Shown here piece by piece: positions 29,313 through 32,258 of a stretch of DNA of 64,000 nt. How positions within the stretch are numbered: position 1 is the first letter of the stretch; each line of letters begins with the position of its first letter. The notes beneath the pieces were generated by a model, which was not told the origin of the DNA, ran no database searches, and saw only the letters and a list, made by a program, of their open reading frames with translations. Source of the DNA: Bacteriovoracaceae bacterium UBA4573 (lineage in GTDB: Bacteria; Bdellovibrionota; UBA1018; UBA923); contig DGKJ01000108.1 of assembly GCA_002387735.1 (NCBI GenBank), positions 473 to 64,472 of the forward strand. The letters are read 5' to 3'. A program made the translations under genes and the position numbers.

Positions 29313-30068
29313 ATGCGCTTTTTTTTCTTACTGCTCCTTTGTTTTGTTACCACCCTTCCCTATGGTTTCTCGGCTGGCAATCCGCCCACAGAACCGAACT
29401 GCCGCGGGGTCGTCGGCTCTAATGAACAAGAGTTTGATCTCCAAAAAGCCCTCGATGCCCACTACCTGCAATACCGCGGAGTCACGAGCACCGTGGTTCG
29501 CAATTCCAAGGCTTTTGTTTTCGTGACCGACCAAGTGGTCGCAGACCATTTGCCAAAAACTCATTTGGGGCACGAGGTCGAAATCGCAGTCGTTCCCGTC
29601 GATCTTAAAATTCGTTCTTCCGCCGGACAACTCACCACTGACTTCACCAAAGCCGTCGCGGCGGCAAACGCGCTAGGAGAAAAATTTGGCAATGAACCGT
29701 GGTGCATGGGCATAGGCGTCGAAGGCGAAAGCGACGCTTTCCTGGTAAACTTTAGAGTGTCCGACCTCGAGGCCGTCCCCTACGTCCTTGGAGAATGGGA
29801 AGGCGTTCGCGTTGATTCCGAAATTTCGGAAGTCGCCGACCAGGACCACCCTGCCAGAATCGAACTGGTTCGCGAACGCGCAGAATCGGCGCTCGTTGCA
29901 CTTCAAGAAAAAATTTCGAATTCTGATTGGTACATCAATAGTCAACTCAAAGAAGTGAACGGCGGTTACGTACTCAGCGTTTTTGTCACTGATTTCCAAG
30001 CAGCAGACCAAGATCGCACTCCGTTCGCGATCGAGGACATTCAAATCCTATACTCAAAACCAGAATAA
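29313..30068 (+). CDS. hypothetical secreted protein (251 aa)
   Basis: Signal peptide MRFFFLLLLCFVTTLPYGFSA. Confidence 0.45.
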   Translation: MRFFFLLLLCFVTTLPYGFSAGNPPTEPNCRGVVGSNEQEFDLQKALDAHYLQYRGVTSTVVRNSKAFVFVTDQVVADHLPKTHLGHEVEIAVVPVDLKIRSSAGQLTTDFTKAVAAANALGEKFGNEPWCMGIGVEGESDAFLVNFRVSDLEAVPYVLGEWEGVRVDSEISEVADQDHPARIELVRERAESALVALQEKISNSDWYINSQLKEVNGGYVLSVFVTDFQAADQDRTPFAIEDIQILYSKPE

Positions 30069-30134
30069 CCAAACCCAGTCGATCTCTTCGTGAGAGACTC
30101 CGGTTTTGGCGTCAAGCTGTACCCGAAGCCCACC

Positions 30135-30272
30135 TCACGTTTGTCCTACATAGTTGGAATGCAACAGCGCTAGAAAAGGCAAAAGTTTGGCTAAGACTAT
30201 GAGCAACCAGGTCTTTTGCTTAAGTTTTTCTAGCCGAATCCGATACGTTAAATACCTGGTGGTATTTTTCAT
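30135..30272 (-). CDS. candidate small hydrophobic protein (45 aa) with SD-sequestering 5' hairpin; type I toxin-like
   Basis: The minus strand reads GGAAGGAGGTGATCCCAT-ATG, then MKNTTRYLTYRIRLEKLKQKTWLLIVLAKLLPFLALLHSNYVGQT and a stop. It has a strong SD at ideal spacing and one predicted TM helix. It is below the ORF-track size cutoff. Confidence 0.3.
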   Translation of the reverse strand: MKNTTRYLTYRIRLEKLKQKTWLLIVLAKLLPFLALLHSNYVGQT

Positions 30273-30485
30273 ATGGGATCACCTCCTTCCTTACGAAAAG
30301 GAGGTAGATCCATCTACTCGCCTGAGTTTGGCGGGAAACACTTCAGCAAAAACGAAGCCATTGCAAACGCAACTAACGTGGCACGGGTATCCACATTTCC
30401 GGACCAGGATCTGAGTCTTCGGTCTATTTCCCTGACCAAATCTCAATACTTGACTTAAAAAATACAGCTCTATATAAGAACGCAG

Positions 30486-32258
30486 ATGTTTCGCCAGAGC
30501 TTCCTTCTCACCCCCATTCTCTCGGCCGCCCTGGCGGTTTTTGGTGGTTCTGCCTTTGGCACCACCTGCCGGTTCGTCATTGAATCACAAAATGAAACCT
30601 CTGGCGCCGTTGTGGACACGATTAGCGAAGACCCGATTCGATTTATAGAAATGGCGCGTTCGCGGGCGGCCGAAGCTAAGGCACAGGGTAAAACTGATTT
30701 TGAAGTTCCTGAATTATCCACTGTAACCAAAGAAATTCTCGTTTCCATCGCAAACGACCTGGACACTTCGCCACCCCTCGCCGACCAACTCATCGCGCTG
30801 CAAATTCGCGGCGAAAAAATTTTAGCGAACCACGTACCTTACCGCGAACTCGTTCGATTGGTGTTTCAGTGGTCCGAAACCGTCGACACGATCAATCGCG
30901 TGCAAGTACTGACCCGTCTGGGCACCGCGCGTGCTAAAACACTCATCGAAAAAGCAGCAACTATTTCGCATTACGAATTCGCCCGTGCGGCTCAAGAGAT
31001 TCTTTTTGATCTCGCCATCGAAACGCTCGAAGAGCTTAAAGACACACGACCAATCGAAGCCCAACGTTTGATCGAAATCGGCCACGCCCAAGCCCGCGGG
31101 GACGACACCGCCATGAAAGCCGCTCAATGGGTCGAAGCCAGCGTGAAGTTGGCAGCCACCACCGATCGCCGGTTTCCATTCGCGCCCAACGAATTTCTCA
31201 CCCTTTTCCACGAAAGCTACGGCCGCGCTCGCCTGGAAGAGCTGCTCGAAGAAGCCCCGAACGTTTTAATGGTCTTTATGTTTGGGACGACCTCCATTCG
31301 CACGATCAATCGCTTGCGTGCCTCTGGAGTACTGGTGCATGGACTTTCGCGCCACCCCCAATACATCGATAACTTCTACCTTTCTCCCGTCGAAATTCTT
31401 TTTCACGACGTGGGCCACAGCTGGCTGATGAAAAGCCAAGATCGCCGCTACGGTTTAGCGTCTACCCCCGAACGCTGGCTCCAATACCTAAACCTCGAAA
31501 GGCGCATTGATCACCTCGCCCAACACGACGAACTTTTAGCCAAGGTGGCGGAATATTATCTCTTCGAAGTCGACCACGAACGGGGCTACCCCTTCGATGT
31601 GTTCATCAACACCAACGAGATCAACACCGAAATGTGGGTCGATACGATTCTCAAAAAACTCCAAACCAAGTTTTGGGCCAAAAACCCGGTGCCGGATTCG
31701 ACCTTTGGCCGGTTGAACGAAGCCCGACTTTGGTTGCTCGAACAGTTTCGCGAACTGCTCGAAGAAGCCATCGAACGCCGCTTCCAAGCTGTCAAAGATC
31801 AACCTCACCGCGTAGCTGTGGTACCTCTCCAACGAAGCGAACGGGGGTTACCGGTCGGCGGAGTGATCGCTAAGAGTGGCACGATTTATATCGAAGCCAT
31901 TTCTAATAAGGGTGAAACTTTTCTCAGCGACATTTTTAATTTTTCGGTTTCTCAGGTGCCAGCCGAAATAGATGGGTTGCTCGATCAGCCGGAAACGCTC
32001 ACACTGATTCGTAAACACCTGGACCGCTTTATGCCGATGAAAGATGGCGAGAGGCACCTGACTTCGTACGAACTTTTCAAAATGCGCCAACTACGCCATG
32101 CCGAAAAAAAACATACACCGCTGCCGTTTTCTTATCGCGGGGTGGGTACCACCTATCAAGAACGCGGACTTGCGATTGAAGGCGCTCCTGGCCAAAAAAT
32201 GCTAGTACTCGAATCGGGGCGGCGGGTGCCGCTGCATTTGGTTTGCTTTCTGCCATAA
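30486..32258 (+). CDS. hypothetical secreted protein (590 aa)
   Basis: Signal peptide MFRQSFLLTPILSAALAVFGGSAFG. No recognisable domain. Confidence 0.5.
   Translation: MFRQSFLLTPILSAALAVFGGSAFGTTCRFVIESQNETSGAVVDTISEDPIRFIEMARSRAAEAKAQGKTDFEVPELSTVTKEILVSIANDLDTSPPLADQLIALQIRGEKILANHVPYRELVRLVFQWSETVDTINRVQVLTRLGTARAKTLIEKAATISHYEFARAAQEILFDLAIETLEELKDTRPIEAQRLIEIGHAQARGDDTAMKAAQWVEASVKLAATTDRRFPFAPNEFLTLFHESYGRARLEELLEEAPNVLMVFMFGTTSIRTINRLRASGVLVHGLSRHPQYIDNFYLSPVEILFHDVGHSWLMKSQDRRYGLASTPERWLQYLNLERRIDHLAQHDELLAKVAEYYLFEVDHERGYPFDVFINTNEINTEMWVDTILKKLQTKFWAKNPVPDSTFGRLNEARLWLLEQFRELLEEAIERRFQAVKDQPHRVAVVPLQRSERGLPVGGVIAKSGTIYIEAISNKGETFLSDIFNFSVSQVPAEIDGLLDQPETLTLIRKHLDRFMPMKDGERHLTSYELFKMRQLRHAEKKHTPLPFSYRGVGTTYQERGLAIEGAPGQKMLVLESGRRVPLHLVCFLP

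Follow-up and report, generated by a model that had tools for sequence, protein, structure and literature searches.

The bacterial systems that come closest to the element reported here, a transcription unit of ~265 nucleotides (nt) on the minus strand of a 64,000-nt stretch of Bacteriovoracaceae bacterium UBA4573 (contig DGKJ01000108.1, positions 473 to 64,472; this whole stretch is called the window below), are small-peptide mRNAs that keep their own Shine-Dalgarno (SD) sequence out of reach. Like the hok/Sok and AapA/IsoA mRNAs, the unit encodes a peptide of <60 amino acids (aa) with one transmembrane (TM) helix (predicted here), its full-length mRNA is closed by covarying 5′-3′ pairing, its SD is predicted to be unavailable in the primary transcript, structure is conserved over the whole mRNA, and there are multi-copy chromosomal paralogues. 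Unlike them, it has no antisense RNA gene detectable by consensus and conservation scans, a local anti-SD arm upstream holds its SD and 3′ trimming in silico does not release it, its promoter is of the sigma-54 type, it has no sequence similarity to Hok or AapA, and it belongs to a phylum, Bdellovibrionota, without described type I systems in the literature searched. In the class of tisB, zorO, dinQ and shoB, a local stem-loop sequesters the SD and the mRNA is activated by 5′ processing (in part, PMC8594479). The SD of the present unit was likewise opened in silico only by removal of the 5′ arm; the members of that class, however, have small RNA (sRNA) antitoxins (IstR-1, OrzO, AgrB and OhsC) and SOS or constitutive promoters, whereas no partner sRNA, processing site or standby site was identified here. 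The Qrr family and GlmY share with the unit the design of a short, stand-alone, activator-dependent unit with a −24/−12 promoter (predicted from the sequence here) and several paralogues per genome, but those RNAs are non-coding, ~100-200 nt long and either Hfq-dependent or decoys, in contrast to the selected open reading frame (ORF) with a strong SD found here. RNAIII/delta-haemolysin (hld), SgrS/SgrT and SR1/SR1P also combine a structured RNA, a fold conserved outside the ORF and a peptide of <50 aa; in our unit, unlike in these, the ORF makes up half of the RNA and overlaps most helices.

Judging from sequence comparison, we read the unit as a sigma-54-driven, self-locked, folded mRNA for a conserved single-pass membrane peptide, with a probability of about 0.7, and consider it very probable that a real, translated, SD-locked small-peptide mRNA lies at its core. 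Positions 30332..30067 are matched over their full length by an nhmmer profile built on 14 homologues (E = 6e-67); conservation begins at the promoter and stops ~265 nt on, with unrelated sequence beyond. A preliminary description of the locus had delimited the feature at 30105..30320, which contains the ORF and its hairpin but only part of a unit that extends from 30360 to ~30067. The intergenic gap measures 417 nt. Ahead of the ORF the minus strand reads 5′-GGAUCUACCUCCUUUU-CGUAA-GGAAGGAGGUGAUCC-CAU-AUG. The SD arm of the resulting hairpin, P2, includes AAGGAGGUGAUCC, and the plus strand across the SD is GGGATCACCTCCTT, the canonical 16S 3′ tail sequence, as the preliminary description had pointed out (the tail was taken as canonical, the window being without an rRNA gene). 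The bulged stem reported there is present too, but in place of 12 base pairs (bp) and an ATG 5 nt further on we find a predicted stem of 13-15 bp (5 bp, a bulged U and 10 bp, of which 8 are Watson-Crick and 2 are G.U; −20.9 kcal/mol) and a start codon (30272..30270) 3 nt past it. A region of 236 nt is more stable in folding than its shuffled versions, with z = −3.2 on either strand. The 12-mer GATCACCTCCTT alone is not significant, as 17% of shuffles match it with ≤1 mismatch. P2 and the ORF are more than chance because hairpin, SD, ATG and ORF recur in 16/16 distinct homologous copies from other genomes.

Substitution patterns show that the ORF has been translated at some time, as the frame is under purifying selection. 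Over the whole ORF, the ratio of nonsynonymous to synonymous substitution rates (dN/dS; Nei-Gojobori, codon alignment) is 0.29 in frame vs. 0.92 and 1.09 in the shifted frames, and in the gap-free core of 84 nt, with near-duplicate paralogues removed, it is 0.22 vs. 0.61 and 1.58. The core holds 0 stop codons in frame and 24 and 17 in the other frames, variability by codon position follows the order 3 > 1 > 2, the hydrophobic class of residues is conserved in substitutions, and an ATG stands 6-9 nt past GGAGG in all copies. The small hydrophobic ORF first noted in the window holds as quoted, at 45 aa. Its most hydrophobic part is residues ~23-37; the N-terminal side has a net charge of +6 and the C-terminal side one of 0. 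The product is predicted to be a peptide of 40-50 aa that crosses the membrane once, has its N-terminus inside and carries a basic motif, YRIRLEKLKQKTW, in juxtamembrane position and a conserved Arg/Lys in the TM helix. Two plus-strand ORFs, of 86 aa and 61 aa, run antisense across the unit (window 30154-30458), one of them starting from the same CATATG palindrome. Both are put down to a sequence that is structured and poor in stops; it is the minus-strand frame that carries the signal of selection.

The fold was examined on a DNA alignment of 14 full copies, in which pairs were assessed by RNAalifold and by explicit pair counting; MAFFT/nhmmer alignment with pair counting was used in place of a full-length covariance model. 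Over the whole structure (Table 1) 81% of cells are paired in the 14 sequences vs. 38%-54% in slid controls, and covariation as strong as that observed was reached by 0/500 shuffles. The end-to-end helix P1 has 96% of its cells paired, with compensatory double changes in 7/12 pairs. P2 is paired at 83% with 3 covarying pairs, and its CCUCC/GGAGG core is invariant save in one homologue (L009), where both sides have changed to give CCCCC/GGGGG. The arms of P3 differ from copy to copy (AAAUACC/GGUAUUU in the window, GAAUAACA/UGUUAUUC in L006, GCAACAC/GUGUUGC in L008), and 6 of its pairs carry double changes despite imperfect alignment. Helices 6-9, in P4, are 69%-89% paired with double changes in 7 pairs, and helices 10-12, in P5, are 65%-82% paired with double changes in 6 pairs. 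For the pseudoknot, 92% of cells are paired vs. 28%-52% in slid controls, and 4/7 pairs are compensatory. Cells with G.U exceed those with A.C by 128:60 overall and by 25:2 in P1, which argues that the conserved helices act in the RNA of the ORF strand and not as DNA inverted repeats or in an antisense RNA.

Table 1. Features of the unit and of the region upstream of it, in window coordinates (RNA helices are numbered P1 to P5).
Feature	Position	Strand	Remarks
Putative enhancer (activator-binding) dyad GTCCGGAAATGTGGAT	30404..30389	minus	~72 nt upstream of RNA start; tentative
Transcription unit	promoter at 30360 to RNA 3′ end ~30067	minus	
Sigma-54-type promoter TGGCTTCGTTTTTGCT	30360..30345	minus	−24 GG at 30359-30358, −12 GC at 30347-30346
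Whole conserved transcript, ~265 nt	30332..30067	minus	P1 5′ strand to P1 3′ strand
P1 5′ strand GCCAAACUCAGGCGA	30332..30318	minus	pairs with 30082..30068
Invariant junction P1/P2 GUAGAUGG	30317..30310	minus	G16, T17, A20, G22, G23 and A24 invariant in 14 sequences
P2, SD-sequestering hairpin	30311..30276	minus	anti-SD arm 30311..30296, loop 30295..30291, SD arm 30290..30276
GGAGG of SD arm	30286..30282	minus	
P3, hairpin with start codon and N-terminal codons	30274..30243	minus	in the minimum free energy (MFE) fold of every homologue
ORF, 45 aa, MKNTTRYLTYRIRLEKLKQKTWLLIVLAKLLPFLALLHSNYVGQT	30272..30135 (including stop codon)	minus	peptide family, dN/dS, conserved ATG
P4, long hairpin inside ORF (GCUAGAAAA...UUUUCUAGC, inner stems)	30234..30169	minus	encodes LEKLKQKTW and TM segment
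Pseudoknot 5′ side, P4 apical loop UAGUCUU	30199..30193	minus	pairs with 30147..30141
Pseudoknot 3′ side AGGACAA	30147..30141	minus	just before stop codon
P5, domain of the 3′ untranslated region (UTR), GUGAG/CUCAC and UCGG/CCGA stems	30139..30089	minus	helices 10-12
Invariant P5 loop GGGUACAGC	30124..30116	minus	G209-G211, T212, C214 and G216 invariant
P1 3′ strand UCGACUGGGUUUGGU	30082..30068	minus	abuts stop codon of convergent 251-aa gene

The overlap of constraints is unusually clear in this family, as almost every helix lies inside a frame under purifying selection and base-pairing dictates part of the peptide 'conservation' (NN..YY, LEKLK). At the N-terminus, NN..YY reflects the pairing of AAUAAU with AUUAUU, and where one arm of a helix has changed synonymously, the other arm shows, by eye, conservative replacements to match. 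Near the stop codon a UAGGAC..GUGAG block persists as coding sequence in the window, as partly coding sequence in L006 and as 3′ UTR in L009, and the AGGACAA of the pseudoknot is likewise retained in L006, whose ORF terminates sooner, and in L009, where the block falls in the 3′ UTR.

Every copy has a P2-type hairpin, with energies of −13.6 to −21.5 kcal/mol. The predicted probability that the SD is unpaired is ≤0.05 in 14/14 homologues, so that the occlusion by an anti-SD hairpin described for the window extends to every homologue, and the AUG is predicted to be largely paired in most of them. The preliminary description had also raised an RNA thermometer, in which the SD hairpin would melt at higher temperature. 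Occlusion of the SD by a local hairpin just ahead of the ATG suits such a switch, but known thermometers rely on weak, mismatched helices, and the hairpins found here are long, GC-rich and nearly perfect. Since the fold of the window hairpin is unaltered at 75°C in silico (−6.0 kcal/mol), the thermometer was rejected, and we hold it to be extremely unlikely. Activation by 3′ trimming in the manner of hok was rejected as well, because the SD stayed paired after removal of 20, 40 and 80 nt in silico. Removal of the anti-SD arm in silico raised SD accessibility to 0.29-0.56, and nothing else that was tried opened the SD. The extended SD is complementary to the 16S tail over up to 13 nt, with a duplex energy of up to −25 kcal/mol.

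These properties are consistent with the following course of events. The sigma-54-type promoter, probably fired by an enhancer-binding activator, would start the RNA 1-2 nt before P1. The anti-SD arm, which is nearly identical to the 16S 3′ tail, would be made ~10-30 nt before the SD, which would be locked in a hairpin of ~−20 kcal/mol on emergence, with the AUG buried in the next hairpin; the pairing is taken from comparison and thermodynamic prediction, and the co-transcriptional timing is what we infer from it. Since the anti-SD precedes the SD, co-transcriptional translation should be blocked. P1 would later clamp the 5′ end to the 3′ end, and the finished ~265-nt RNA would be a compact fold of P1-P5 and the loop pseudoknot. 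Because P1 hides both ends, a stable and translationally silent pool might be expected. Unlocking would need the anti-SD arm to be removed or competed for, either by 5′ processing or by a trans-acting RNA or protein, and a releasing factor might capture the anti-SD arm or the invariant junction. Once free, the extended SD would drive efficient initiation through its duplex with the 16S tail. It is a speculative extension, and an improbable one on present evidence, that the units make up a new class of activator-gated, self-locked 'stored' mRNAs, that is, a sigma-54 regulon of paralogous ~265-nt RNAs in Oligoflexia/Bdellovibrionota. If so, the fold (5′-3′ clamp, anti-SD that mimics the 16S tail, pseudoknot and GGGUACAGC loop) would itself be the sensor or processing-dependent switch, and a membrane-active peptide would be released without an antisense antitoxin, the same nucleotides being constrained for both peptide and switch.

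Dependence of the unit on sigma-54 is likely. The promoter signature GG-N10-GC is found in 16/16 copies with its GC 13 ± 1 nt upstream of the first P1 base, and the family consensus, nGGCAy-N5-TTGCT, compares well with the sigma-54 pattern TGGCAC-N5-TTGCW. This −24/−12 signature at fixed spacing places the start 1-2 nt before 30332. A consensus scan of the window and of 14 homologous units found no sigma-70-like promoter on the sense strand. Further upstream, a GTCCG-N4-6-CGGAC-like dyad (≤2 mismatches) lies at −72..−126 in 7/14 independent upstream regions, compared with a null mean of 2.0 and with none of 300 shuffles attaining that count, for a motif that was defined post hoc. The GTCCG-N5-CGGAC-like dyad may be the activator site. 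Directly downstream of one copy (L006:3200-3250) there is a long perfect palindrome rich in GGATTCGGATTTCCGATCCGAAATCCGAATTC, which resembles the upstream dyad GTCCGAAATCCGGAC of other copies.

The peptide proved a better handle on the family than the neighbouring proteins, through which the route to orthologous loci gave one relative at 41% identity. Used as the query in a protein search, the 45-aa peptide returned five other ORFs of 43-50 aa at 58%-80% identity, and a profile built from these peptides returned at least 148 homologous proteins (38-50 aa). An exhaustive hidden Markov model search of 1.84 billion cluster representatives gave 83 clusters (50% identity), nearly all of 38-50 aa; P0129, a protein of 1981 aa with 11 matched stretches and the look of a tandem array, is a galectin-like repeat protein and was discarded as a false positive. 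The peptides share the pattern M-(polar, N/K-rich)-YYSYRIRLEKLKQKTW-xLVVLA(R/K)-hydrophobic-YYLRR. A search with a DNA pattern, which is blind to ORF integrity, added two further full copies with intact ORFs (L017 and L019) and one 3′-truncated copy. The named sources of homologues are metagenome-assembled genomes or isolates of Oligoflexia and Bdellovibrionota, and the gene neighborhoods of the copies are unrelated between genomes (DksA/GT2, fmt, GcvT, LolA-SMC and others). Paralogous copies, which the preliminary description had considered worth seeking, occur in the family, and Bdellovibrionota FG-1 (GCA_051382295.1) has 3 inside 4 kb and further ones on other contigs, but the nhmmer profile finds one copy of the unit only in the window. 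A second type of peptide (P0002, 80% identical) was found in the same samples as the window's type and is possibly a paralogue in the same organism. The unit is thus a member of a previously undescribed, multi-copy chromosomal family of Oligoflexia/Bdellovibrionota, in which each unit is a self-contained transcription unit.

Multiple copies of ~265 bp with 14-bp terminal inverted repeats at variable intergenic positions could also be those of a miniature inverted-repeat mobile element, its terminal repeats mimicking P1 and its ORF and hairpin being due to chance. The family has no match in plasmid, phage or IMG/VR collections, however, no transposase is consistently nearby, the window has its single copy, and the ORF is under coding selection. 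None of the copies has its conserved promoter inside the 'repeats', and P1 tolerates G.U and not A.C, as RNA would and DNA repeats would not. On the last two grounds the mobile-element reading of P1 was rejected, and we give it, together with a chance ORF and hairpin, hardly any weight.

Most family members are unnamed or are called 'hypothetical protein', and the family is without a Pfam or Rfam entry, which illustrates what ORF cut-offs of 60 aa miss. Compared with Pfam, NCBIfam and PADLOC, the peptide gave nothing above noise at E-values up to 10; Rfam has no gathering-score match in the 64-kb window, tRNA-type families gave nothing in the region, and a permissive search there gave a noise match only (E = 7.3). 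In several database calls (P0014, P0026, P0037, P0081, P0084 and P0115) the ORF has been extended upstream through the SD hairpin, and the artefactual N-terminal extensions that result, e.g., 'ELPPFPLREKGGDP', are the hairpin translated in frame. The FG-1 triplet (L024:1336-5202, JBBCAW010000012.1) is interleaved with unrelated genes (DUF4423, acetyltransferase), its ~150-nt upstream regions are near-identical too, and a HipA/HTH toxin-antitoxin pair lies 3-4 kb downstream. A metagenomic variant of the P0002 type (L005:3100-3125, cf. L002) has an in-frame tandem duplication of 12 nt, GCCTTTTCTAGC, which repeats 'PFLA' in the peptide (49 aa, P0003) and doubles the 3′ strand of P4. Two copies are 3′-truncated. 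The one at L028:9912-10161 keeps the promoter, the SD hairpin and an intact 43-aa ORF and has lost the 3′ half of P5 and the 3′ strand of P1 where a 717-aa gene begins, and the one at L023:1385-1241 diverges immediately past the TW codons; they may be decaying copies or assembly chimeras.

Pairing of SD and anti-SD and long-distance 5′-3′ interactions are key determinants of type I toxin mRNAs in T1TAdb (PMC8594479). Both are found in the unit, the latter as the long-distance helix P1, together with a small hydrophobic peptide predicted to have a single TM helix. It was on the peptide and the SD lock that the preliminary description had based its proposal of a type I toxin-antitoxin (TA) locus; these have been joined by the 5′-3′ helix and the multi-copy distribution, but an antitoxin and a toxin family have not been found. 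In a complete type I module the peptide would be a membrane toxin, and its mRNA would be under the control of an sRNA antitoxin encoded in cis-antisense or nearby; type I toxin mRNAs are recognized by a small TM peptide, an SD/anti-SD stem-loop, a long-distance 5′-3′ interaction and multi-copy chromosomal loci in combination (PMC8594479). The variable intergenic positions and clustered paralogues of the unit would agree with such a module, as would weak −10-like CATAAT hexamers antisense to the YY codons, which occur in two of the FG-1 copies only (L024a/b). Over 14 copies, however, the antisense strand has no positionally conserved sigma-70-like promoter or intrinsic terminator in scans with sigma-70-type consensus sequences, so that the antisense promoter considered at the outset did not materialize. 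Beyond the stretch from promoter to P1 there is no conserved sequence that could serve as a flanking or divergent sRNA, the excess of G.U over A.C assigns the conserved helices to the sense RNA, and the RNA is not activated by 3′ trimming in silico, unlike hok. The peptide matches no Hok/Gef, Ldr, TisB, Ibs, ShoB, Fst, TxpA or other known toxin family. Sigma-54 promoters are silent without an activator, and this silence could make an antitoxin unnecessary. A complete type I module is therefore unlikely in our view, and the existence of a dedicated RNA antitoxin is about equally doubtful. A role for the peptide as a membrane toxin of the type I kind is a serious possibility, although we would sooner bet against it.

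In its translation control the unit is type I toxin mRNA-like, yet we do not class it among the type I TA systems, because no RNA antitoxin was found, the peptide belongs to no known toxin family, the promoter type is unusual and toxicity is putative. The literature searched yielded no Bdellovibrio type I toxins, no sigma-54-dependent type I toxins and no sigma-54 dual-function RNAs. If the toxin-like interpretation is true, this would be the first candidate toxin-like small-peptide mRNA family for Bdellovibrionota/Oligoflexia, none having been described in that literature, and an architecture tied to sigma-54/enhancer control would represent a different way to keep a dangerous or tightly timed peptide silent.

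Small proteins such as MgrB, AcrZ, MgtS and Prli42 bind membrane partners, and the peptide could be a small regulatory membrane protein of this kind and not a toxin, with a specific partner in the membrane and an mRNA lock that delays or gates its synthesis. The 13-residue polar motif YRIRLEKLKQKTW is near-invariant over the 83 clusters, and conservation this strong is unusual for pore-type toxins; the apparently activator-dependent promoter would also suggest a dedicated response. Against this, the invariance of the motif is partly demanded by P4, in which GAAAAACUUAA pairs with UUUUC, no conserved neighbor gene offers itself as a partner, and multi-copy paralogues are more typical of toxins. 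We regard a regulatory protein as rather unlikely, if somewhat less so than a complete type I module.

A dual-function or primarily regulatory RNA, which would act in its own right (e.g., as an sRNA that works by base-pairing, as a sponge for a protein or as a sensor), would make the ORF secondary or one of two functions, as in RNAIII/hld or SgrS/SgrT. The conserved fold reaches far beyond the initiation region (pseudoknot, P5, the unpaired invariant GGGUACAGC and the GUAGA.GGA junction), nucleotide blocks near the stop codon are kept even outside the ORF (L006 and L009), and complementarity in a hairpin, AAUAAU vs. AUUAUU, could explain NN..YY. The Qrr family consists of multi-copy sigma-54-dependent sRNAs, so that the design is a known one. 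Frame-specific purifying selection, conserved hydrophobic-class substitutions and an ATG at canonical SD spacing in all copies speak for the peptide, however, and no target or partner was identified in the window, where one extra exact complement of the GGGUACAGC loop, inside a 537-aa ORF, is at chance level. An RNA with a primary or second function of this kind is a minor contender. A small membrane regulator and a dual-function RNA are not mutually exclusive with the core model of an SD-locked peptide mRNA.

Several points weigh against the sigma-54-driven, self-locked mRNA that we favor. Because the structure whose pairing was counted came from the MFE fold of the window sequence, its 'paired' values are inflated in comparison with the slid controls. 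The homologues were for the most part recovered via their peptides, and the set is biased to intact ORFs. No rpoN gene and no GAFTGA-type activator occur in the window or in the homologous loci examined, and scans of the window and of 14 homologous units gave no canonical intrinsic terminator after P1. A specific protein partner would explain the near-invariant polar motif no less well than a toxin would. The fold is also more elaborate than translation control needs, with a pseudoknot, an invariant loop GGGUACAGC in the 3′ UTR and an invariant GUAGA.GGA junction, and the RNA may have a function of its own.

The genes on either side of the unit are without a Pfam domain. The convergent gene of 251 aa (window 29313-30068, plus strand) encodes a protein with a signal-peptide-like N-terminus. 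The divergent gene of 590 aa (window 30486-32258, plus strand) has a single relative, at 41% identity, among representative genomes of 185,579 species. A TTGACT-N17-TATAAG sequence (window 30451-30488, plus strand), which the consensus scan did not call as a promoter, lies ~7 nt before the ATG of the 590-aa gene, which is without an SD, and this arrangement suggests that the mRNA of the gene could be leaderless or near-leaderless.

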